NCBI RefSeq assembly: GCF_000341895.1
Contig: NC_020409.1
Span: 2,340,001-2,372,000 of the forward strand
Direction of reading: 5' to 3'
Source of the DNA: Pseudodesulfovibrio piezophilus C1TLV30
GTDB taxonomy: Bacteria > Desulfobacterota > Desulfovibrionia > Desulfovibrionales > Desulfovibrionaceae
DNA: 32,000 bases
This document shows, piece after piece, positions 15,934 through 32,000 of the stretch (its first letter is position 1; the number at the start of each line of letters is the position of its first letter). The position numbers and the translations under genes were made by a program. The notes beneath the pieces were generated by a model. That model had not been told where the DNA came from and made no database searches. It worked only from the letters and a program-made list of their open reading frames with translations.

Positions 15934-16224
15934 TTATTCCAAAGGAAGTTTATATTGTTGTGGACCTGATTTTCCCGTGTCCCGAGAAACAGCATCCTGC
16001 CAACCTGAATTTATGAAGTCCAATAACGCTTGTTCTGGAACGCGCCATTGGCTGCCGATCTTTATGGCCCTAATACTCCCGCCAGTGATGAGCCTGTACG
16101 CAGTCCTTTGGTGGACCCGCAGCAGTTCAGCCACTTCGCGCACGGTTAATAACGTGGGGGGCGTAGAAATATCTTTTCTGTCCATAATTTCATAAGCAGT
16201 CTTACATTGATCAACCTTTGACAT
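15934..16224 (-). CDS. Excisionase-family (MerR-superfamily) helix-turn-helix DNA-binding protein
   Basis: LLTVREVAELLRVHQRTAYRLITGGSIRAIKIGSQWRVPEQALLDFI is a textbook excisionase-type HTH_17 motif. The start may be Met14. Confidence 0.75.
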   Translation of the reverse strand: MSKVDQCKTAYEIMDRKDISTPPTLLTVREVAELLRVHQRTAYRLITGGSIRAIKIGSQWRVPEQALLDFINSGWQDAVSRDTGKSGPQQYKLPLE

Positions 16225-16628
16225 AAGCAGTCACTGATTGTCAACAAAGTACAACGTTGTCCTACAGAGTCTAGACATTTTCTATATGTGACATCTTACA
16301 AAACCATTACAAGAGGTTGTTGTTCGTTAGAGAATTGTATATCAGATTTTGCTCTGAAAAATAACGGTGAAAAGAGGCATTTTTTTATTTTTAAGAGTGA
16401 GAAAATCACTCAATGAGTCTAGGAAAAGTCAAAGGAATGTCTCAATGAAATGGGCAAAAAATAGTGGAAATAGGGGATCTGAGGCTTCTTAGTGCAGTGT
16501 GAAGGGAGGAAATCAAAAAAGGATGACAAAGGGAAAGAAGGAAGTATGAAAGAGTGAAAAAAATAAGTTCTGATATACAAGCTCTTAAGCGAGATACAAA
16601 CCTTGAAGTTTCTTGAAGGACGTTAAAG

Positions 16629-17093
16629 TCAGGGATTTGTCAAGACCATGAAAGAGAAGAGAGGGTGTGGAAAGGGATGAGGGGGAACAGGGTCTTCTTC
16701 AATTACATCGCAGAGAATCATAACGAGTTCGGTCTGGTCGTGCTCCAAATGGGTGATTATTTGCTGCATGATTCTTTCGAAATAGCTTCGGTCATTGATC
16801 GAAAGCCCCTTATTGGCGGTTTTCATTAAATCAGAGAGGGCGTTTTCAACCTTGATTTGCAGGGTTTGTCCGGTTGATGTCAGCCTGATAAGGTGTTGCC
16901 GTTTATCATCGGGCTTCAAAGTCCGAAAGATCAAGCCACCTCTTTCCATTCTTTTCAGGGTATTGGAAAGGGTTGCCTGTTCCACCAAAATCTGCTCAGG
17001 CAATTCTTTTTGAGTGATGTTGTCGGTCAGCCAGAGTTGCCTCAGTATCGAGAGATAGCCTGGGTGGACATTGTACACCAGACGCATGGCCAA
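16629..17093 (-). CDS. MarR-family transcriptional regulator
   Basis: Winged-HTH core ITQKELPEQILVEQATLSNTLKRMERGGLIFR...DDKRQHLIRLTSTG. Divergent from the deacetylase gene. Confidence 0.85.
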   Translation of the reverse strand: MAMRLVYNVHPGYLSILRQLWLTDNITQKELPEQILVEQATLSNTLKRMERGGLIFRTLKPDDKRQHLIRLTSTGQTLQIKVENALSDLMKTANKGLSINDRSYFERIMQQIITHLEHDQTELVMILCDVIEEDPVPPHPFPHPLFSFMVLTNP

Positions 17094-17282
17094 ACTTTTT
17101 GTAAAAAGGCGCTGTAATTGCGAAAGTCGCAGAAAGAAAGGGTCGGTATTATCTGTATGAATACTATATTGAATGATGAAAGCGAATAGTGTTCATTCAT
17201 GGAACGCTATGGAATGGGCGTGAGCCTGTCAGTATCAGAGCTGTGCCTTTACGTTGGTATTGGGACGCGATACCATGTTTCC

Positions 17283-18143
17283 ATGAAAATTATAGTGAAT
17301 GGTGATGATGCCGGGCTTCATCCAGCGGTGAATCGGGCTTTGAAAGCGTTAGTGGAAAGAAAAATAATGACCTCGGCATCTCTCACCGGAAATGGTGAAG
17401 CTGTTGAGGAAGCAGCAGAAATAAGGGATATAAGCCTCGGGGTACATCTTGATATCATACGGGGACGACCTGTTCATGATTGGCAGAAGATTCGTTCCCT
17501 TGTTGATGAAAACGGTGCTTTTCTGGGGAGTTCTACTGCTCTCTTTTCCCTGTATGCAGAAGGTCGACTTGAACATGAGCATGTGGAGCGGGAATGGAGA
17601 TCGCAGATTGAAAGAATTCTCGCCCTTGGTGTGCAACCATCACATCTAACCAGTCATGACCATGTGCATGCATGGCCGACATTGACCCGAATGATTGGTG
17701 AGCTTGCCTGTGAATACGGTATAAAATGGGTTAGAAAGCCTGTGGAGTGTGCCGAGATATCACTGTTGGGCAAGCGGCAGGGCCAAACAAAATTCATGAA
17801 TGTCTGCGGGATGTTTGACAGGGAGACAGATGGAGTGAACTGGACAGATGTCTTCTGGGAATTCCCGGAGGAGAGATTGAAAAACACACCGGCCGCTTTC
17901 GTTGCTTTTTTGAAAAAAGCTGGTGTTGGCAAAGGTGCGCCAGTGGTTGAAATAGGGTGTCGCCCTGGGAGTATCCAAGGGGGGGACCCCGTTATTCAGA
18001 AACAATATAAACCAATTCATATCGCTGCTGTCTGGCGGGAAACACTGGCCTCTTTCACTGAAAATAATTGGCTGGATACCTTTCAGTCACTTGGATTGAC
18101 CTTGACAGGTTACGATTGCCTGGAAATGGAAAAAACAGAATAA
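17283..18143 (+). CDS. ChbG/YdjC/HpnK-family carbohydrate deacetylase
   Basis: ORF 17199..18143. Family members begin MK.IVN.DD.G, and MKIIVNGDDAGLHPAVNRA starts at 17283. An HLD motif follows. No clear Shine-Dalgarno, so the start is uncertain (17199 and 17214 are alternatives). Confidence 0.7.
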   Translation: MKIIVNGDDAGLHPAVNRALKALVERKIMTSASLTGNGEAVEEAAEIRDISLGVHLDIIRGRPVHDWQKIRSLVDENGAFLGSSTALFSLYAEGRLEHEHVEREWRSQIERILALGVQPSHLTSHDHVHAWPTLTRMIGELACEYGIKWVRKPVECAEISLLGKRQGQTKFMNVCGMFDRETDGVNWTDVFWEFPEERLKNTPAAFVAFLKKAGVGKGAPVVEIGCRPGSIQGGDPVIQKQYKPIHIAAVWRETLASFTENNWLDTFQSLGLTLTGYDCLEMEKTE

Positions 18144-19102
18144 AACAAAGATTTTTCCAGTGAAGGGGGATGGGATCGCGTAATTGAATTGCTCTCGACT
18201 CAGCTTGCTTCAGGGAAGGGTGGTAATCTGATGGGGACTGACCACAATTGCAACTAATATTTCGTAATAATTGAATTAAAGCATGATAATACAGTGATGT
18301 TGATCAGGAAGATTGAGAGCTGTTTGGTATAAAATTGAAAGAGGACTGGGTGTCTTTATGTTCAATTGTGATCAAGACGTTGGGTTTGAGTAAGCAAGGG
18401 GAATAGTGGACTCTTTCCTGGATGGAATTGAGGTGTTTTTTGATTCGCTTGGTCAATAAAAAGATGCTTCGAATGTCGGTTCAGCCAAATATTCTGCTTC
18501 CCAAAATCGATTCCACCTGTGCCGAGAAGGTTCTTTGATGTAAAAGGGGACAGGCGACTGGATCAGTGGTTTTACCCATGAGTTCTTTTTCAAGGGGCCG
18601 AGTGCTCAGGGTGACTATTTTGACTTGTGACAGTGAGACACTCAAAAGCAGGCGATGAAGTTGGGTATTGCTTCTTCCAAGGTATGCTATTCTTCCGTAA
18701 GTTTTTTTAGGAACCATATCAGGGAAATTTTTTTGTAAGATTTCGCTGAAAATGTTGTGGATAGTTGCCTATTGCTGCTTTGCCTTTTTTTGTACTGTGG
18801 CAGGGAGAGCTCAATAAAGGTGCGTCCAGATACTTTTTTAAGATCATTTCATGAATTAGAGTATTTGAATTTGTTGAGTATTTTGAGATAGTGGCAGCCT
18901 GAAAAAGCGGAGTTGTTGGGATCAGTGTTTCTGAGAAAACCTGTTTTGCTGATATTGGGTGAGTGTTATGGATAAGAATACCATTTCCTTCTTTACTCCA
19001 GAAAGAGGTTTTCTTTTTCTGCTGATTTTTCGAGTGCAAACACGAGGCAGGTTTGAGGGTTGCTGACAGTTGCAGATAATAGAGACAGGCAGAGGTATGA
19101 AT

Positions 19103-21903: not shown

Positions 21904-22076
21904 ACATCACGGACATCACGGACATCACGGACATCACGGACATCACGGACATCACGGACATCACGGACATCACGGACATCACGGACATCACGGACATCAC
22001 GGACATCACGGACATCACGGACATCACGGACATCACGGACATCACGGACATCACGGACATCACGGACATCACGGAC
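21904..22076. repeat. Perfect tandem repeat, 19 x 9 bp (ACATCACGG) plus a 2-nt partial copy
   Basis: Counted directly: units run in phase from 21904 to 22074 with no mismatch. The array begins 5 nt after the tetR stop codon. Confidence 0.98.
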
Positions 22077-23350: not shown

Positions 23351-24145
23351 ATGCCCGTTGTTTCAACCGTAACACTGTTGGTCAAGAATCTCGAAAAATC
23401 AGTCAGGTTTTACGAAAAGAGCCTTGGCTATGTGTGGACTCGGGAGAACCTGCTTGTGGGCTTCTATGGGCAATCTCTGCGCCTACAGCAGGTGTCTGAC
23501 GGGCCGACAGGAGGCTGTATGGTCCTGCATGTGGACGTGCCGGACCTCGATGCTGCAGAAACGGCGTTCTTACAAAACGGGGGAGGGCGTAGCAAGTATT
23601 CTGGCGGGAAAACACCACTCTACGTCGGACTTGACGGTGAATTGATCATGCTCCGGCAGCGAGGGTTGCCCAAGGTTCCCGCTCTGAAATTGATCGTGTA
23701 TGACTTCGACGGTGTTTTGACTGATAACCGTGTTTTCGTGGATCAGGCAGGGGGAGAGAGTGTTGCTGCCAACAGGTCGGACGGATTGGGTATTTCCATG
23801 ATCCGAAAACTTGGCATCGAACAGACTCTTCTTTCGACCGAAACAAATCCCGTGGTGTCTGCCCGTGCCGCAAAACTTGATATTTCAGTCATGCAGGCCG
23901 TTACTGACAAGGCGGCAATGCTCACGAAAATGGTTGTTGCCAGAGAAATTGCCTTTGCATCCGTACTATTCATGGGCAATGATATCAACGATCTCGGAGC
24001 CATGACCTTGTGCGGCTTCAAGGTTGCTCCGGCAGACGCGCACCCTTCCGTATGTGCGCTTGCAGATTATGTGACAGAAGCCAGAGGCGGGCACGGGGCG
24101 GTCCGGGAATTGGCCGATGTCATCATGGCTGGTCGCCGTTTTTGA
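23351..24145 (+). CDS. Fusion protein: N-terminal VOC/glyoxalase-like domain + C-terminal KdsC-family HAD phosphatase
   Basis: AAGGAG Shine-Dalgarno directly upstream of the ATG at 23351; the listed ORF start at 23186 is an upstream extension. Residues 1-105 (VTLLVKNLEKSVRFYEKSLGY...) look VOC-like. Residues ~112-264 carry KdsC/YrbI motifs: LIVYDFDGVLTDNRV, NRSDGLGI, GNDINDL, VAPADAHP, YVTEARGGHGAVRE. Confidence 0.75.
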   Translation: MPVVSTVTLLVKNLEKSVRFYEKSLGYVWTRENLLVGFYGQSLRLQQVSDGPTGGCMVLHVDVPDLDAAETAFLQNGGGRSKYSGGKTPLYVGLDGELIMLRQRGLPKVPALKLIVYDFDGVLTDNRVFVDQAGGESVAANRSDGLGISMIRKLGIEQTLLSTETNPVVSARAAKLDISVMQAVTDKAAMLTKMVVAREIAFASVLFMGNDINDLGAMTLCGFKVAPADAHPSVCALADYVTEARGGHGAVRELADVIMAGRRF

Positions 24146-24500
24146 GCAGATGTCGCTTTGCTTGCAAGACGACTCTCCTCACCTTCTTCACATTTTTTCA
24201 AGCACCTGAGACCGTTCATGGGAAGGATCAAATGTCTTCTCACTTTGAAAAGTGAGAGGCTTTGGTTCGATGTGGTGAATATATGAATCGTCACCATATA
24301 ATTATGATGTATTTTAGTAAGTTAAGAGAATCATAAAGTTATCGATCTCTTTTTTTTGATAGTGGCTTGTTGTGGGTGAATAATAAAATCCTTTACTGAG
24401 CATAGCGCTAGGGCGTGGCTGGCTTAAATGTCGACACGCCCTAACTTTTCAGTAATTAGGAAGCTGTCCCCATAATTTCTAGAGAATGGAGCAAGCTCTT

Positions 24501-24773
24501 CTATTTAGATATCGAAAGTTTTATGAGTCCTTCCGCTTCAGCTTCTTTTAAAATATCTAATATTTTCTTATAATATTTAGGTATGGATTCTTCAACAATT
24601 GATGCATTTGTCCAGGAAATATACGTAGGAACATCTATCCATCCTGTTAAACAATCCCACAAAGCATCTAAATTCTCACCATAATAGTCGGGTAGATCTA
24701 GTTTTTTTTTCAATTCCCAGTGGAGCGATTGGATAGATCGCATTTTCTTGCCATTTAATTCAACGCTACTCAT
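24501..24773 (-). CDS. cdiI: Barstar-family RNase inhibitor; CDI immunity protein
   Basis: The 90-aa ORF aligns without gaps to Bacillus barstar as I recall it (NG..RSI..LH..LKK.L.LPDYYGENLDALWDCLTGW ... EAEAEG). About 32 of the first 54 residues are identical, including the equivalents of Tyr29, Asp35 and Asp39. Its ATG overlaps the cdiA stop as ATGA. Confidence 0.9.
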   Translation of the reverse strand: MSSVELNGKKMRSIQSLHWELKKKLDLPDYYGENLDALWDCLTGWIDVPTYISWTNASIVEESIPKYYKKILDILKEAEAEGLIKLSISK

Positions 24774-27700
24774 TTTAATACCTGTTTGAAGGTTTTATAG
24801 TGATCTGTTGTTTTATATACAAGTCCGTCATTTGAGATGACTAGTCGTACTGTTCCTCTATAGCCTCCAGTGTCATTGATATCTGCTTCTATCCAAGTCC
24901 TTCCAGGAGCAGAGGGCAAGAGTCCTTCTTTGTCTTTGAAAACGTCTCCACCGATACTTTTGCCCGGAGCAACATCATGCAGGTTCCCTTTTTTGGGGTT
25001 CCATCCCAGTTTTTTTGCTTCAGCTTTTGTTAAGAAATTGTCAGGAAGCTTACCTTTTTTAACAGCGTATTGGGCAATGTCGTCAACTTTTGTGAGGACG
25101 GTAGCAACATTATCTCCCATCTTCGTACCAAGTCCAGCGATCATCAAGCCGATTTTGGACATGCCGAACTTGGTGAAGACTGCTCCGAGGGGGGCGGCGT
25201 CTACAGCCGTATCTATCAATATTTCGGTACTATAGTATTTTATGGCTTCTTCGTCTTGATCTTGGATTGCTTCTGCGAGCTTGTACGCATTGTACATTTT
25301 GACGCCAGCATCCACGGCTTCACAGGCTCCGTATATGACCAGAACAAGTGGGAGAGCGTTGTTTTCTGCGGCGTTACCGCCGGTCTGGGCTGCAATGTCA
25401 ACATCCCCACCGGCCAAAGCCGCAGCCATGCCTGCTCCAAGGCGGGCTACATTGACACCGTGTCGTTTCAGTTCAGCAATATCCGAGCTTAGCTTATTCA
25501 ACTCCGCCTGGAGTTCTTCTCCAGACAATTTGTCCATGTCTTTTGAGTCTTCAATTCTATTGCTGATCCAAGCACTGACAAATGTGTCGCCAATCAGTTC
25601 GCCAGTTACAGCGCCTATTGCACCGGATGCCCCGTTGCCTCCGGAAGCCAGATCGAGCGCACCACCAAGGGCGGCATGTGCAATGTATTGCGTGGCTTTG
25701 TTGATGTCCTGATCTTTGTAAGCTGTGCCAATCAGGCTTGCCCCTTGTGCCCCCAACGTCGAGACAGCCGCCCCGCGCATGTTTGCGACCAAGTTTTCAC
25801 CGAGGTTTCCGCCGTTGACGGCGGTGCCGACACCTGTGTTGATGCCTGCGTTGATGACATTGTCCTGAAGGCTGTTGGCGAGGTCGGAGTAGAAGAGGTC
25901 GAGTTCGGATGCGCCTTCGCCTGCGGTGGCGATGGAGTCGACGTTTTGGGCAACATCGCTGGCGATACCCGCGCTGATCATGGCCGTGGTCAGGGATTTG
26001 AGTCCTGCCTCGGAGGCGATGGAGGCCAAGCCCTTGCCAAGGTCACCGCCAGCGGCTGCGTTGCCGAGGGCAGTAACGGCTTGGGTGCCGATGGAGGTAA
26101 AGGCCGCTGTGAGAGCGGTACACATGGCAATCTGTGCTGTTGAGGCAGCAGTGGTCGTGCCCGCCACAACCATGGTGGATACGCCGTTCACCATAGCCAT
26201 CTCCATGCCCATGGCCGCCATAGCCAAGCCGGAAGCAGCACCTGCCGTTACAGCTGATGCAATGAGGGAGATGATCAACATACCTCCCGCGCCAAGGCCG
26301 CCGTCGGATTTGCTCCATTGGTCGTGAATTTCCTGGACGGCCTGCCAGTCAACGTCGTCGCGCTCCAGCAGGTCGCCCATCCATTCGAGGCCTTTGGCGT
26401 TGGCGAGGAGTTCGACGTCCTTGCGAACATCGCCGGAGGATTCCTTGAACTCCACGGTGACGCCCTTGGGCGTTGTGATAGTCAGGCTGGCCCCCGGCTC
26501 GATGAGAGTATGGAGTACGGTTTCGTCGATCTTGCCCTTATCCTCGGACGACCAGGTCAGGAAGCCCATATCGGTCTTCACTTTATGTTCAAAAGACTTG
26601 TTCTTGGTCACCAGCATCGCGACCTTGCCTTCTTCGGCTACGATCTCGGTGGTGTCTCCAGATTTGATGCTGGCGGATTGCAGCACGACGTCGTTCTTGG
26701 CGTTCAGAGCCACCTTTTGTCCGGCTTCAAAGACCGGACGATTGTTGGTGGTGTTTTCTTTCTGGACCATGTCCACGGATTCAGCACCCATGAATCCGCC
26801 ACGTTTTTCTTCGACTTTGATCTTATTTTGAATCTGGTTGGTTGTGGCCTGAATGTCCCTTGAGGCAGTGATCGTCACATTCTGGGTGGCCTTGATCTGG
26901 CTTCCCTTGACGATGGCGTTGCCTTCACTGGCGTCGCCCCCAGCCTCAATGCTGACCGAGCCCTTGGCGTTGATGGTCGAGGCTGCGTTGGTCTGGGCCA
27001 GTTGCTCGAATGTGGAGGACTTGCCGCCGCCGAAGAAGCTGCCACCGGCGTCGTCGGCGTGGCTGTAGAGATCTATTTCGTTGGTGGCGGCGGTGATGGC
27101 GACATTGCTGTCGGCCTCGAGGGTTGCATCACCCCCGATGTTTATCTGGCTGCCGTGGAGGGCGATGTCCTTGCCCGCTGTCACGTTCAGGTTGCCATCT
27201 GTCTTGACGGTGCTTGCTTGCTGCCGCGTGATGTTGGTGCGGGAGCTGTAGTTGCCGCCGGATACCGAGGATTGGGTGGCCAGATCGACTGTGGAGACGG
27301 CGACATTCCGGCCTGCGGCCAAAGTGGTGTCGCTGTCGCTTGTCACCTCGCTGCCGAGAACGCCGATGTCCTGGCCGGCTTCGATGGAAAGGGAGCCCGT
27401 GGCTTGAACCTTGCCCTGACTGCCAACGAACTGAGAAGAAGTCTCTTGATTGTTGTTATTCAACACCTGAGCGGCAAATACTACGTCCTTGTCTGCTTTC
27501 AACGCCACAGTTTCACCTGTGATGGTGCCACCTGTATTGCGAATGGAATCAGTTGTCGTCGCCGCGACAGTCTGACCAGAAACCGTGCCGGTGTTGAGGA
27601 AGTTTTCAGCAGTGATGGTCACCTGTGTTTGAGACTGGATCAGACCGTCATTAGACGTATTGCCCGCGGTGTTAATCGCCACGTCCTTACCCATGATGAC

Positions 27701-30295
27701 CGATCCGCCACGGGCAAGCTTTTTGATGCTGTTTGTACCGAGATACACGACAGGAACAAGGGCTTCCTGCCCATTTAATGTTCGCTTCTCCAGCCAGACA
27801 ATGTCTTTGGTCAGCGAAGAAATCTGCTCCTGAGTCAAGGCAATACCGGGAGTGAGGTTCAGGTCACCCTTAATATCAACGGCATTGTCCATGAGTTGTT
27901 TGAACTCTTCGGTATCAGTAGTGCGCTCCTCACTCAAAAAGCGCTTGGCAGCCAATTTCCTGATCTGTTTGGCCACAAGGCGCGTCTCGTAAAAGGCATC
28001 TCCCATGCGCTTATTGGCTTCGTCGTTCGGATCCATTCCGAAACGGGACATCATGTACTCCGAGCCGTAAAAATCATCGAGATCGATCAGGGCCGGGTCG
28101 GTCTCAATGGCGTAATTCTGGGCCGGATTGGTATTGAGATTGAACAGGCCATTGGACGGAAGAAGGTTGGTTTCATCCGTGACAGAGGAAACCTTGCGCT
28201 GCTGTTTGTTAGGGTCCGGCTCCTCGATAACGCCATTACGCTCGGTAATGCCGTTGGTTACTGTGCCGCCAGAGATGCTGACCTTGTTACCTGCGTCCAG
28301 AGTTCCATATTCATTGCCCACGGATGATAAATACTGAACAGTGCCGCCGCCCTTTTTTTCGATAGACGGTGAGCGGTGAGAATGGAAGGCACCGCGTCCC
28401 CAAGTGACATAACGGCGTTCGAACAGTTCATGCCCTATGTTGTTGAAAGATTTGGCGATAATGTTGATATCGCCTGTGGTCGATGAAATAGTGCTGACGC
28501 TGTTGGTACCTGCATCCGTCTCAATGAAAATGGAATTATGCGCTGCTATGGATGCCCCTGCATCTTCGCCCGTGACGGTATCAGTGGCTGTTCGTTCAGA
28601 GAATATTACGCCATTGGTCTGGCCGTAGGCCGCAACAAAATACAGCATTCCTTTCGCCAGCTCTCGCTTGGCGATTCTCAGCGCATTCTTCCCTTGTGAT
28701 GTCAAATAATTCGAATCCTCGGCGAGCTTCAGATCCAGCTCTGCAATATGGGCGGACAAATCTGCTGCTGAAATGACGTCAGGGGTTGTGTCCATTTTCA
28801 GGTGGTGCATGTTGCTCAAAGGGTAAGCCGTCCACCCGGAGGGGCCAGCGTAAGCCCGGCCAACATAGTGCTTGAAAAGCTCATACGTTTTCCAATTGTC
28901 GTCTCCAGCCTGGAATACGCCATCAAGAGTACCGCCTTCGTCGCCTCCTTCAACCAATATAAACTTTGAGTTGCTATTATTGAACGTAGTCGCACGGAAG
29001 ATCAGACCGCCCTCAAGGGATTCGATGGTTCCGGAATCATTCTGCAGGGTCGCCATGCGAGTGCCTGCAGTGGTCCCTTCAAGAACGGCGTTGCCTTTAG
29101 CGAGGATAGTACCTTCGTTGTTGTACAGGGTGTCATCAATGCGGAAGGTCGAAGTGCCGCCGGAGTATATGGTGCCGGTATTGGTGACATTGGTGGCCGT
29201 GATCAGCACCTCGGTATCCGCCGCCATAAGGCGCTGGTTGTCGAGGGTTCCGGTATTCACCTCGATCTTGTTTGCATTGACCAGAGCCGCATCAGTGGGA
29301 TTAACACGGGCCACGGTGACGGTTGGGGCAGACAGTGTGGCGGTTCCGGAGGCTTTGACCGTACCGGAGACATCAATGGAATCCTGCGAGGTCAGGGCCA
29401 ACGTATTGCCCGAGGAGACCTTGTTGGTAATCTGAATCTTGCCGTCAGCCGTCATCTCCAGATGCTGGGTGGACTGCACCAGCCCCTTCGTGTTGACGCC
29501 CACACCGGCCTCGGTTCCCACGAGCTTGATACGGCCCGCGTACATGCCACCAAGGGCGGAGGAATCGATGGAAATGGTGGGCGCAGGAGTGCTGTCCGCT
29601 GTCAGCGTGGTCGTGGTGCCAGAGACCGGATTGTGGCGGTTCTGGCCGGTGATCACACTCAGGCTCTTGGCGTGAATATCGGCGTTGATAGTGGCCACGC
29701 GGGAGACCAGTTCAAAGGCGTCGATGTTGTTGGCGTTGATGCCCGCGCCATGCACGAGGATGTCACCGCTGTGAACATCGAGGCCCACGAAGGTATTGCC
29801 ACTGAACTGCGGCACACCCGTGGTCATGGTGGCTTTGGGCGTGTTGATGAACCCACCACCATTGATGGAAATACCGTTGGGGTTGGACAGGATGTAATTG
29901 GCTGACTGACCGAATATTTCCGTATGCCCCTGAATGGACGAACGCCCGGTCCCGGTGACCTCATTGAGAATGGTGGTGGCTGCCGTGCCCGAGAAATTCG
30001 GGTTCGGAGCCATCGCACCGCCCAATTGAGACACGCCGGGGGCATCGCCGTTGTTGATGATGACACCCGAGCTACCGACATTGAAGTCGGTGAACATGTT
30101 GTGGGACATGCCGTTAGCGCCCGGAGCAGCTATGTTGACCACGTCCACGCCGTTGGGGGCAGTATCCATGGTCGCTTGATTGGCGGCAGGTGCAGCGGCG
30201 TCTGGGGTTATGCCCCCGGCGTGAACCATGGAGGGCGGGCAGAGAATGAGACTGATAAGGAAGGCGATGAAGAGCTGTTTGATGGATTCAAGCAT
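24770..30295 (-). CDS. cdiA: CdiA/TpsA-type filamentous-haemagglutinin-family exoprotein with C-terminal barnase-like RNase toxin
   Basis: 1841 aa. Features in order: a Sec signal peptide (…PPSMVHA/GG); a TPS domain with ILNEVTG and NPNGI; long G/T/N/V/S-rich beta-helix repeats; the FhaB-type conserved core (LPSNGLF, ETDP, DIVWLEKR...VPVVYL); a Gly/Ala-rich pretoxin region ending in AENN; and a barnase-like C-terminus. Confidence 0.92.
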   Translation of the reverse strand: MLESIKQLFIAFLISLILCPPSMVHAGGITPDAAAPAANQATMDTAPNGVDVVNIAAPGANGMSHNMFTDFNVGSSGVIINNGDAPGVSQLGGAMAPNPNFSGTAATTILNEVTGTGRSSIQGHTEIFGQSANYILSNPNGISINGGGFINTPKATMTTGVPQFSGNTFVGLDVHSGDILVHGAGINANNIDAFELVSRVATINADIHAKSLSVITGQNRHNPVSGTTTTLTADSTPAPTISIDSSALGGMYAGRIKLVGTEAGVGVNTKGLVQSTQHLEMTADGKIQITNKVSSGNTLALTSQDSIDVSGTVKASGTATLSAPTVTVARVNPTDAALVNANKIEVNTGTLDNQRLMAADTEVLITATNVTNTGTIYSGGTSTFRIDDTLYNNEGTILAKGNAVLEGTTAGTRMATLQNDSGTIESLEGGLIFRATTFNNSNSKFILVEGGDEGGTLDGVFQAGDDNWKTYELFKHYVGRAYAGPSGWTAYPLSNMHHLKMDTTPDVISAADLSAHIAELDLKLAEDSNYLTSQGKNALRIAKRELAKGMLYFVAAYGQTNGVIFSERTATDTVTGEDAGASIAAHNSIFIETDAGTNSVSTISSTTGDINIIAKSFNNIGHELFERRYVTWGRGAFHSHRSPSIEKKGGGTVQYLSSVGNEYGTLDAGNKVSISGGTVTNGITERNGVIEEPDPNKQQRKVSSVTDETNLLPSNGLFNLNTNPAQNYAIETDPALIDLDDFYGSEYMMSRFGMDPNDEANKRMGDAFYETRLVAKQIRKLAAKRFLSEERTTDTEEFKQLMDNAVDIKGDLNLTPGIALTQEQISSLTKDIVWLEKRTLNGQEALVPVVYLGTNSIKKLARGGSVIMGKDVAINTAGNTSNDGLIQSQTQVTITAENFLNTGTVSGQTVAATTTDSIRNTGGTITGETVALKADKDVVFAAQVLNNNNQETSSQFVGSQGKVQATGSLSIEAGQDIGVLGSEVTSDSDTTLAAGRNVAVSTVDLATQSSVSGGNYSSRTNITRQQASTVKTDGNLNVTAGKDIALHGSQINIGGDATLEADSNVAITAATNEIDLYSHADDAGGSFFGGGKSSTFEQLAQTNAASTINAKGSVSIEAGGDASEGNAIVKGSQIKATQNVTITASRDIQATTNQIQNKIKVEEKRGGFMGAESVDMVQKENTTNNRPVFEAGQKVALNAKNDVVLQSASIKSGDTTEIVAEEGKVAMLVTKNKSFEHKVKTDMGFLTWSSEDKGKIDETVLHTLIEPGASLTITTPKGVTVEFKESSGDVRKDVELLANAKGLEWMGDLLERDDVDWQAVQEIHDQWSKSDGGLGAGGMLIISLIASAVTAGAASGLAMAAMGMEMAMVNGVSTMVVAGTTTAASTAQIAMCTALTAAFTSIGTQAVTALGNAAAGGDLGKGLASIASEAGLKSLTTAMISAGIASDVAQNVDSIATAGEGASELDLFYSDLANSLQDNVINAGINTGVGTAVNGGNLGENLVANMRGAAVSTLGAQGASLIGTAYKDQDINKATQYIAHAALGGALDLASGGNGASGAIGAVTGELIGDTFVSAWISNRIEDSKDMDKLSGEELQAELNKLSSDIAELKRHGVNVARLGAGMAAALAGGDVDIAAQTGGNAAENNALPLVLVIYGACEAVDAGVKMYNAYKLAEAIQDQDEEAIKYYSTEILIDTAVDAAPLGAVFTKFGMSKIGLMIAGLGTKMGDNVATVLTKVDDIAQYAVKKGKLPDNFLTKAEAKKLGWNPKKGNLHDVAPGKSIGGDVFKDKEGLLPSAPGRTWIEADINDTGGYRGTVRLVISNDGLVYKTTDHYKTFKQVLK
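24773..25102 (-). other. Barnase-type (microbial guanyl-specific RNase family) toxin domain of CdiA, residues ~1732-1841
   Basis: KLPDNFLTKAEAKKLGW..KKGNLHDVAPGKSIGGDVF...EG.LP...GRTWIEADIN.TGGYR...R.....D.LVYKTTDHYKTF. Ungapped hand alignment to remembered barnase gives about 57/93 identities. The equivalents of Lys27, Glu73, Arg83, Arg87 and His102 are all present. Confidence 0.88.
25358..25369 (-). other. AENN motif (VENN-variant pretoxin boundary)
   Basis: The reverse complement of 25358-25369 reads GCA GAA AAC AAC = A-E-N-N, in the context GGNAAENNALPLV. This is the position and context of the VENN motif that delimits CdiA-CT domains. Confidence 0.8.
25358..26302 (-). other. Gly/Ala-rich pretoxin region (DUF637 / PT-VENN-like), residues ~1332-1646
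   Basis: GGLGAGGMLIISLIASAVTAGAASGL..., GDLGKGLASIASEAGLKSLTTAMISAG, ALGGALDLASGGNGASGAIGAVTGELIG. The composition and motifs resemble regions preceding VENN in other CdiA/MafB-type proteins. Confidence 0.6.
29396..30217 (-). other. TPS (two-partner secretion / haemagglutination-activity) domain of CdiA, residues ~27-300
   Basis: NGVDVVNIAAPGANGMSHNMFTDFNV, ILNEVTG, and the NPNGI motif encoded at 29870-29884 (verified by reverse translation). Confidence 0.85.
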
Positions 30296-30310: not shown

Positions 30311-32000
30311 CTAGAAGGAGTATTTGATGGAGGTGTAAATTTCGATGTCGTCTTTTTGCAAAAAGGCAGGCGCGTCGATGGGACGGGCTACGGCAAAGTC
30401 CATGACCAGTCGTCCACCGCTGGTGCGCATACCGACCACCGCGCCCTGGAGCGAACCGCGCTCCTCCAAATCCTTGGGATCGGATCGAATGACGCCCGTG
30501 TCGTATCCGGCATAAAACTGCATGGTGCCCAACCAGTCGGATGCAGTCGGCGATTTCTTTTTGATATTCGGCAGATTGAGCGTCAGTTCGTTGCGCATGT
30601 ATGCGCCGATATCACCGCTCAGGCTGTCGTCATGAAAGCCCCGGACGGTGTAACGGCTGCCGATGCTGATCTGTTCTGCGCTGTAAAGGGTATGAGGAGC
30701 CCACTGGCCAGTGACGGAGGTATTCCACGAAAGGTTGAGATCCTTGACTTTCAACGGGCGAAAGAAGCTGCCGTTGAACACAAACTTGTTGAACTCATTA
30801 CGCGCGGTATCGAGTGAGGGAGATATATCCCGTTTAGCTCCCAAAAGAGGCAGGCCGTGGCTGTATCCCACCTGTGCGCTTGCTACACCGCCGAGTACTC
30901 GGTGCGTATGTCCGAGGGTGGTCCCAATGGAGGTAAGAACCTGACTGGTAGCGACCAGTCGTCCGCTATTGAAGTAGTTCTGCGTATCCCGATGGGTGAG
31001 GGAGACATTCAGCGATGTTTTGCCGTTCTGATCACGGTGAAGCACACGATCAACGCTCAGGGATGTCGTCGTTGTGTCGCCTTCCGAGGGATAGTTAGCA
31101 CCGCCGCTGGTCACTTCCGTGCGGTATTTATAGTGGCTGAAAGATCCGGAGAAGGTCCAGTAGCCTAGTGGCACCGAGTAGAAGGCGTTGTAGGTGGCGC
31201 TCTTCTGATGCTCATCTGTCAGCCAAGAGTCTGAATCGCCGTTGATGGTGATGTTGAGCAGGTCATTAATGCCAAACAGATTGTCCTTAGCAAGGGCAAG
31301 GACATACTGATTGCGGCCGGTAGAATCCTGCCCCGTGTTATCCAGACCAAATGAGGCGCGCCAGGTCTTTTTACGCTCGTTGGAGACAACAACACGGCTG
31401 GCACCTTGCTCTCCACCAGGAAGCAACTCCATCGATGCATTGTTGGAAGGAAGGCGGTTGATCTGATCAAGCCCCTGTTCAATGTCTCTCAGGTTCAGAT
31501 ACTTTCCGGCCAGTCCTGGAAACGCGCCCTTGATCTCCCGCTGGCTGCCCTGCCCCTCTTTGAATTCGATCCCCTCGACCTTTCCCTCTACAACCATGAT
31601 TACCAGATGTCCGCTGGAGAGATCCTGCTCCGGAATGGCCGCACGGGTGGTGACATATTCCTTTTCCACATAGGCATTGGTGATGTCGTGGACGAGATTA
31701 TTGACGTCGTTAAGCGTCAGGCAACGGCCTATGTATTTGGCAGTAATAGCGTCGATCTCTTTTTGATCGAGAAGGGTTACGCCCGTAATTTCAATGGACT
31801 TGGTCTCCATACATGGAGCATCAGGAGCCGCCTCCGGGATCTCCGACAATCGTAAATCCTCGCCGGTGGGAGCTTTTTGCAGCTCTTCACGATGCTGCCG
31901 CTCCAATTCCAGCCTGCGCTGCTCCTCCTGCCGCTGAAGCTGTTGCTGTTGACGAATGGCGTCGTCGACAGGAGCAGCCCAAGCCATAGGGCAAACAATA
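30311..32000 (-). CDS. cdiB: CdiB/TpsB Omp85-family transporter (ShlB/FhaC/HecB type), 5' end outside the window
   Basis: Has a POTRA-like N-terminal region and a beta-barrel with a C-terminal aromatic terminus (...YTSIKYSF). The frame stays open to the window edge: codons upstream of the listed Met read ...IVCPMAWA/APVDD, the end of a signal peptide. Its stop is 15 nt upstream of the cdiA start. Confidence 0.88.
   Translation of the reverse strand, partial: IVCPMAWAAPVDDAIRQQQQLQRQEEQRRLELERQHREELQKAPTGEDLRLSEIPEAAPDAPCMETKSIEITGVTLLDQKEIDAITAKYIGRCLTLNDVNNLVHDITNAYVEKEYVTTRAAIPEQDLSSGHLVIMVVEGKVEGIEFKEGQGSQREIKGAFPGLAGKYLNLRDIEQGLDQINRLPSNNASMELLPGGEQGASRVVVSNERKKTWRASFGLDNTGQDSTGRNQYVLALAKDNLFGINDLLNITINGDSDSWLTDEHQKSATYNAFYSVPLGYWTFSGSFSHYKYRTEVTSGGANYPSEGDTTTTSLSVDRVLHRDQNGKTSLNVSLTHRDTQNYFNSGRLVATSQVLTSIGTTLGHTHRVLGGVASAQVGYSHGLPLLGAKRDISPSLDTARNEFNKFVFNGSFFRPLKVKDLNLSWNTSVTGQWAPHTLYSAEQISIGSRYTVRGFHDDSLSGDIGAYMRNELTLNLPNIKKKSPTASDWLGTMQFYAGYDTGVIRSDPKDLEERGSLQGAVVGMRTSGGRLVMDFAVARPIDAPAFLQKDDIEIYTSIKYSF

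Follow-up and report, generated by a model that had tools for sequence, protein, structure and literature searches.

A predicted cdiBAI locus with a layered barnase/barstar cassette in a Pseudodesulfovibrio genome

Organization of the cdi locus

A stretch of 32,000 nucleotides of the Pseudodesulfovibrio piezophilus C1TLV30 genome (NC_020409.1, positions 2,340,001 to 2,372,000; hereafter the window, numbered from its first letter) carries three consecutive genes, cdiB, cdiA and cdiI (Table 1), which very probably form a standard cdiBAI contact-dependent growth inhibition (CDI) system of type Vb secretion, with predicted activity, belonging to a Pseudodesulfovibrio-like bacterium (Desulfovibrionaceae). 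The 3′-end of cdiA, together with cdiI, appears to be a nested cassette of a pre-toxin block, a linker, a barnase-type toxin domain and a barstar-type immunity gene, along which the guanine-plus-cytosine (GC) content descends in steps. The upstream gene, cdiB, adjoins cdiA at a distance of 15 nt and encodes an Omp85-family protein (Pfam ShlB, 6.5e-90, with POTRA_2 and POTRA_3). CdiA contains a two-partner-secretion domain (TPS, 1.1e-43), hemagglutinin repeats (Fil_haemagg_2, 5e-09) and DUF637 (5e-36), and its PT-VENN domain, which ends in the xENN-type motif AENN, scores 23.9 bits against the Pfam cutoff of 20.3 when the isolated segment is scanned alone. A small immunity gene follows at the 3′ side, and the ATG of this cdiI overlaps the cdiA stop codon (ATGA).

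Table 1. Features of the cdi locus (window positions; where GC was taken over a segment of its own, that segment is given).
Feature	Positions	Strand	Description	Segment for GC	GC
cdiB	30311-31987	minus	outer-membrane two-partner-secretion transporter, 558 aa		0.544
cdiA	24770-30295	minus	1841 aa		
cdiA stalk, residues 1-1515	25751-30295	minus	signal peptide, TPS domain, hemagglutinin repeats, most of DUF637	25751-27403	0.594
Pre-toxin (pre-AENN) block, residues 1516-1646	25358-25750	minus	DUF637 end and PT-VENN domain ending in AENN	25358-25750	0.534
AENN motif, residues 1643-1646	25358-25369	minus			
Post-AENN linker, residues 1647-1731	25103-25357	minus	N-terminal sub-domain of the CdiA C-terminal region, 85 aa	25100-25357	0.488
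Toxin domain, residues 1732-1841	24773-25102	minus	predicted barnase-family RNase, Pfam Ribonuclease PF00545	24773-25099	0.413
cdiI	24501-24773	minus	predicted barstar-family immunity protein, 90 aa	24501-24773	0.333
AT-rich tail 3′ of cdiI	24146-24500		up to the convergent HAD-hydrolase gene; part of the low-GC segment	24298-24500	0.369

This arrangement closely resembles the EC3006 and EC93-type CDI loci of Escherichia coli (PMC9424206). Both share the gene order cdiB-cdiA-cdiI, a CdiA with TPS, hemagglutinin repeats, DUF637 and PT-VENN ending in xENN, a C-terminal region (CdiA-CT) consisting of an N-terminal sub-domain and a C-terminal nuclease, an immunity gene overlapping the cdiA stop, and a lower GC over the CdiA-CT and the immunity gene. 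The present locus differs in its short CdiA, in having AENN instead of VENN, in its host, a Desulfovibrionaceae anaerobe, and in its post-AENN domain, which has no match to any described entry-domain family.

Barnase toxin domain and barstar-type CdiI

Proteins and loci were compared by pairwise BLASTP, MAFFT alignments and fixed-segment GC. The C-terminal domain of CdiA is, as its alignments indicate, a barnase-family RNase with predicted RNase activity. It matches Pfam Ribonuclease at 2.4e-15, its last 108 residues match barnase and binase in PDB over the whole domain (E about 1e-38), and it is 57% identical (62/109, BLASTP) to the barnase of Bacillus amyloliquefaciens. The barnase residues K27, E73, R83, R87 and H102, including the general acid/base pair Glu73/His102, are all conserved in alignments read by eye. 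CdiI, in turn, is assignable to the barstar family and is predicted to confer immunity: it matches Pfam Barstar PF01337 at 5.7e-25 and barstar in PDB at 9e-23, with 46% identity (38/82, BLASTP). Read by eye, its stretch YYGENLDALWDCLTGW, which is the binding helix carrying Tyr29, Asp35, Trp38 and Asp39, is identical to that of barstar, and Glu76 and the EAxAEG motif are also kept. The initial annotation of this DNA had proposed a cdiBAI locus with a barnase-family CT followed by a barstar-family immunity gene, an assignment confirmed by these Pfam and PDB matches. It had also estimated by hand about 60% identity for both proteins, which is nearly right for barnase and too high for barstar.

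The order of toxin and then inhibitor is also the same as for barnase/barstar of B. amyloliquefaciens (PDB 1BRS, 1A2P, 1A19). While the Bacillus barnase is a free Sec-secreted enzyme, the domain described here is the C-terminal part of a secreted filament of 1841 residues, would be delivered from cell to cell, and has its closest relatives in other CdiA proteins (see below).

Composition along the locus

Change points were located by binomial maximum likelihood on total GC and on third codon positions (GC3), with support intervals of two units of the log-likelihood ratio (LLR). For total GC, the break is far beyond chance, with an LLR of 38.4 over cdiB-cdiA-cdiI and 35.3 over cdiA and cdiI alone. 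It is placed at 25300, and the AENN motif falls outside its support interval (25059-25315); the low-GC segment defined in this way runs from 25300 to 24139. For GC3, the change point is at codon 1515, position 25750 (support 25621-25771), where GC3 falls from 0.68 to 0.44, about 380 nt or about 130 codons 5′ of AENN. The GC collapse that the initial annotation had placed exactly at AENN is therefore real as a break but is not located at the motif: GC falls as a staircase of four steps from the stalk to cdiI, the smallest of which (-0.046) is that at AENN. All seven hand counts of GC in 60-nt lines on which that placement was based are exact (0.667, 0.633, 0.50, 0.35, 0.483, 0.333 and 0.20), and the 3′-end is indeed compositionally foreign. 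At the 3′-end of cdiA, GC3 drops to 0.26-0.38, and GC at second codon positions (GC2) is also low in the CT, 0.30-0.44. An effect of amino-acid composition only was considered for the GC drop and rejected, because GC3 shows the largest change.

The reference level matters for reading these steps. Outside the cdi locus the window has a GC of 0.485, so the stalk, at 0.558 as a whole, is GC-rich relative to its own genome, and the proposal of a resident high-GC stalk that received a foreign tip does not fit this background. The linker lies near the host value, and only barnase and cdiI are clearly below it, by 7 and 15 GC points, respectively. One may then ask if the whole cdiBA locus is foreign, the “collapse” being largely a GC-rich stalk returning toward the host level of roughly 49%. 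Such an origin agrees with a stalk GC of 0.558-0.594 (GC3 0.74) where the other 24 kb have 0.485, with a pre-toxin block and a linker that bracket the host value, and with a stalk that is itself mosaic in identity and in GC3 (0.74, 0.57, 0.74). It leaves the real low-GC component of barnase and cdiI unaccounted for, however, and Gly/Ala-rich repeats may inflate the GC of the stalk. Furthermore, no tRNA gene was found anywhere in the window, a search that did not extend to integrases, and the cdi locus has no direct repeats on its flanks that would mark an island. A foreign origin of the entire locus is thus possible but somewhat doubtful.

Sites of divergence among cdiA alleles

The closest CdiA is that of Pseudodesulfovibrio sp. 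zrk46 (P0001), with 67% identity over 97% of the length, and further relatives are found in Desulfovibrio, Salidesulfovibrio, Oleidesulfovibrio and related genera. The zrk46 protein and a metagenomic CdiA, P0013, behave in opposite ways along the sequence. Over residues 1-440, identity is 93-100% to zrk46 and 40-70% to P0013 (by 40-aa block), and the first 1320 nt of cdiA align to zrk46 ungapped with few mismatches. Over residues 1201-1515 the values are 76% and 41%, respectively. In the pre-AENN block they become 53% with a 9-aa gap for zrk46 and 69% ungapped for P0013, and in the linker 30% and 74%. The toxin domain has no significant match in zrk46, and 40% identity over 58 residues to P0013, whose toxin is of another type, an RNase Sa-like PF00545 domain. 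In nucleotide sequence, similarity to zrk46 drops at about 25715-25730, while that to P0013, of about 80%, passes unbroken through AENN and ends at about 25100.

With zrk46 as the reference allele, replacement appears to start near 25750, inside the conserved DUF637/PT-VENN homology and not at AENN, and the collapse of similarity coincides there with the GC3 break. Nor does AENN seem to be a discontinuity with respect to the nearest CT relatives, which remain 69-80% similar straight across the motif. For example, P0356 is 72% identical over 323 residues, continuously through the pre-toxin block, the linker and barnase, and P0358 is 76% identical over the linker and barnase. At the level of the family the picture is the familiar one: the site reads AENN, AEHN, AQNN, AKNN or AANN across relatives, its last Asn is invariant in seven of them, and sequence is conserved up to the xxNN motif, directly after which several CT types diverge. 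AENN would accordingly keep its usual role as a family-wide boundary, as far as these alignments tell. The prediction of the initial annotation, conservation upstream of AENN and variability downstream, is consequently correct for the family as a whole but not for the comparison with zrk46, where the break is at about 25715-25750, or for the nearest CT relatives, which are continuous. A scan of genome contigs with CdiA residues 1250-1646 gave no match.

There is one more variable region within the stalk. Residues of about 441-700 (window about 28200-28970) are only 15-55% identical to zrk46, between flanks of 85-100%, and have a lower GC3 (0.57 vs. 0.74). This identity profile marks it as a second module that has been swapped, and it lies where the receptor-binding region would be expected.

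The zrk46 locus also differs in its surroundings. Along a sawtooth GC profile, it (L004 11874-17505) harbors DUF637-containing orphan fragments of cdiA-CT, putative immunity genes, a Y1 transposase and a tip of the Col-Pyo DNase type. Unlike zrk46, the window is free of orphan CT modules, and the convergent HAD-hydrolase gene comes after cdiI. A JGI metagenome contig, L001, carries an identical cdiI sequence and the same downstream gene families. Its position 1 corresponds to about 25928 of the window, so that the contig ends within cdiA, about 180 nt 5′ of the junction in GC3 and identity; a possible reason for this end is that the stalk varies between strains in that sample.

The post-AENN linker

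The linker is rare. A search of 1.84 billion protein representatives gave only 11 clusters that match it, and a Pfam scan at E up to 10 yields no credible family. In these clusters, no fewer than five kinds of C-terminal domain are joined to it (barnase, RNase Sa-like, PBECR1-like and two unassigned), and its fusion partners include the zrk46-type toxin. In known CDI systems, the CdiA-CT combines a cytoplasm-entry domain with a toxin domain, and the two reassort independently (PMC9424206). The linker likewise is the N-terminal sub-domain of the CT directly after xENN and is combined with several unrelated toxin domains. By this analogy, it is probably a cytoplasm-entry domain, and the fusions argue that linker and toxin domain reassort independently here as well. 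More tentatively, the linker may be a previously undescribed entry-domain family, specific to Desulfovibrionaceae-like CdiA and using an inner-membrane receptor; separately, the AT-richness of the cassette, in hosts of 50-70% GC, may be actively maintained. We regard this extended proposal as conceivable, with the weight of expectation on the other side.

Relatives of the cassette and their low GC

The closest relatives of the barnase domain appear to be CdiA-borne and not those of Firmicutes. The best match anywhere is the CdiA-borne P0358, with 79% identity over the barnase domain, followed by P0356, also CdiA-borne (77%), and by P0121 and P0125 on short metagenomic contigs (72%). Other polymorphic-toxin cassettes, linked to RHS-repeat or HINT domains, reach 66-68%: P0122 (68%), which has its own barstar, follows an RHS protein, an integrase and IS110, and P0124 (66%) is a PT-HINT fusion. 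An orphan cdiA-CT/barstar module located after a full-length cdiA (P0365) is also at 68%, and the genome-encoded barnase homologues of Bacillus, Paenibacillus and Clostridium, from open reading frames (ORFs) of 139-191 aa, are at 55-68%. Among species-representative genomes, the CT alignment matched only Bacillus haynesii, B. swezeyi and B. paralicheniformis (61-64%) and Paenibacillus (55-56%). The genome-contig scan with the CT alignment found no isolate genome with the linker, so that all known CdiA-barnase relatives come from metagenomes.

For CdiI, the nearest named relative is an orphan barstar of another Desulfovibrionaceae genome, Desulfovibrio sp. Huiquan2017, with 62% identity, while Bacillus barstars are 40-51% identical. 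Immunity proteins of the related loci are less conserved than the toxin domains. The Huiquan2017 barstar (L002 9729-10273, JAFMPN010000001.1) has an IS1595 transposase directly upstream, and no barnase remnant was found upstream of it in a search of the three forward frames. Its GC is 0.40-0.44 in a genome of 0.60.

Low GC turns out to be general in such modules. The three related CdiA-barnase loci L006, L007 and L008 show the same GC staircase in surrounding DNA or hosts of 0.62-0.70 GC; their barnase segments have about 0.37-0.48 and their barstar genes about 0.27-0.42. The same sawtooth is seen in modules without barnase, namely the P0013 locus (L003) and both the main and the orphan modules of the zrk46 locus. 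An abrupt GC drop over CT and immunity genes has been described as characteristic of CDI systems (PMC4725963). Because modules with and without barnase share low GC, in line with this published description, the AT-rich composition is best seen as a stable property of the cassette pool. The low GC of the toxin tip is the usual signature of swappable cassettes and not evidence of a recent jump from Bacillus, as it had been taken to be initially.

In that initial view, a barnase-barstar operon of a low-GC, Bacillus-like Firmicute had recently moved into this genome and been joined, precisely at AENN, to a high-GC cdiA already resident there, the GC of the operon being still un-ameliorated. The depression of barnase and barstar below the window background, the GC3 of 0.26-0.38 at the cdiA 3′-end, the restriction of species-representative matches to Bacillus and Paenibacillus, and the close cassette relative P0122, which resides in an organism of 0.25-0.42 GC, would all be expected from such a move. 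The identities do not agree with it. Protein identity to Firmicutes is 55-68% at best, and DNA similarity to the best cassette compared is about 70%, which is not that of a recent event; CdiA-borne barnases are closer. The junction is not at AENN, the background is not high in GC, and the three related loci keep the same low GC in GC-rich hosts. Such a graft is thus highly improbable, and there is no support for a recent inter-phylum transfer, because no match anywhere reaches the identity expected of it. Neither is the combination unusual for a Gram-negative host, as was also claimed: Zhang et al. (2012; PMC3482391) list Tox-Barnase/Imm-Barstar cassettes from many phyla, delta-proteobacteria among them, and a barstar-type CdiI has been noted in Pseudomonas brassicacearum DF41 (PMC4725963).

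A further account denies the low GC any historical meaning and holds that it is kept by selection or mutational bias acting on toxin/immunity cassettes. Possible causes are silencing of AT-rich toxin genes or control of their translation rate, location on AT-biased mobile elements, or small proteins rich in Lys, Asn, Ile and Tyr. In its favor, every toxin/immunity module examined is low in GC at any toxin type and host GC (L003, three in L004, L006, L007, L008 and the orphan barstar of L002), loci only 72-79% identical in protein keep nearly equal GC values, and the low GC2 of the CT points to an amino-acid contribution. On the other hand, the drop is largest in GC3 (0.74 to 0.26-0.54), for which amino-acid content is insufficient, and a shared AT-rich pool feeding frequent horizontal exchange would leave an identical pattern. 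We consider this account unlikely.

The arrangement in one of the related loci is of interest in itself. On the metagenome contig L007 (1737-6000), a ParDE toxin-antitoxin pair and integrases of the phage type come after the CdiA-barnase/barstar genes, a layout suggestive of a genomic island. The source annotation of this contig lacks the barstar ORF (1317-1586).

A probable layered cassette from a circulating pool

The best explanation of the 3′-end, which we hold with considerable confidence, is a cdiBAI locus carrying a layered barnase/barstar cassette from a circulating pool. By analogy with established CDI biology, CdiB would export CdiA to the cell surface, and on contact with a target cell the CT would be delivered and cleaved after AENN. 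The 85-residue linker, as the presumed entry domain, would take the toxin across the inner membrane of the target, where the barnase domain is expected to degrade RNA. The co-translated CdiI would bind barnase and block its active site, and in this way protect the producer. The cassette, with its nested pre-toxin block, entry domain, barnase and barstar, probably belongs to a barnase-cassette lineage circulating among CdiA proteins and other polymorphic toxins. The GC staircase would then reflect this layering: the parts nearest the stalk are the most host-like, and the toxin, and especially the immunity gene, would keep the AT-rich composition of the cassette pool at any host GC.

This reading draws on the domain identities, breakpoints and composition steps, and on the same pattern in relatives. 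Several points weigh against it. The entry role of the linker is read from its position and its fusion to many toxins, and the linker has neither a Pfam family nor a structural match. The CdiA-borne barnase lineage is deduced from ranked pairwise identities, and “host-like” is a judgment on total GC. Furthermore, the cassettes are not close copies of one another, because CdiI shares only 39-51% identity with the barstars of related CdiA loci.

As in the cassettes catalogued in 2012 (PMC3482391) and in the DF41 CdiI (PMC4725963), the barnase-clade tip is paired specifically with barstar. Like those cassettes, it is recombined onto different delivery scaffolds, and orphan cassettes also exist (L005, L008). 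The 2012 table lists the type II, VI and VII secretion systems (T2SS, T6SS, T7SS), TcdB/TcaC, MuF and PVC for Tox-Barnase and does not list the type V system (T5SS), to which the present locus and L006, L007 and L008 belong as CdiA proteins. The locus thereby adds a type V example to the barnase/barstar polymorphic-toxin catalogue, and documents CDI in sulfate-reducer-type anaerobes, where these systems are essentially unstudied. It also illustrates that a GC drop near VENN should not be taken as a dated, single-junction transfer event, that exchange can begin upstream of the motif, within conserved pre-toxin homology, and that entry and toxin domains appear to recombine independently. The current understanding of CDI is unchanged, and the interest of the locus is modest, lying in a rare unannotated linker family and in CDI in Desulfovibrionaceae.

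Other features of the window

Other genes of the window fit an anaerobic Gram-negative bacterium, such as those for the VorB subunit of 2-oxoacid:ferredoxin oxidoreductase and an RfaE-type heptose kinase. The minus-strand ORF at 24067-24297, which lies in the tail and runs past the low end of the low-GC segment into the HAD-hydrolase gene, has no Pfam match. Positions 16000-19000 are also low in GC (0.40-0.44) and contain small MarR- and HTH_17-type genes and a YdjC-family gene, as mapped from contig L001; this may be another foreign segment. Finally, a perfect 9-nt tandem repeat, ACATCACGG, is present in 19.2 copies with 100% matches at 21904-22076, between TetR-like and DUF2087 genes.

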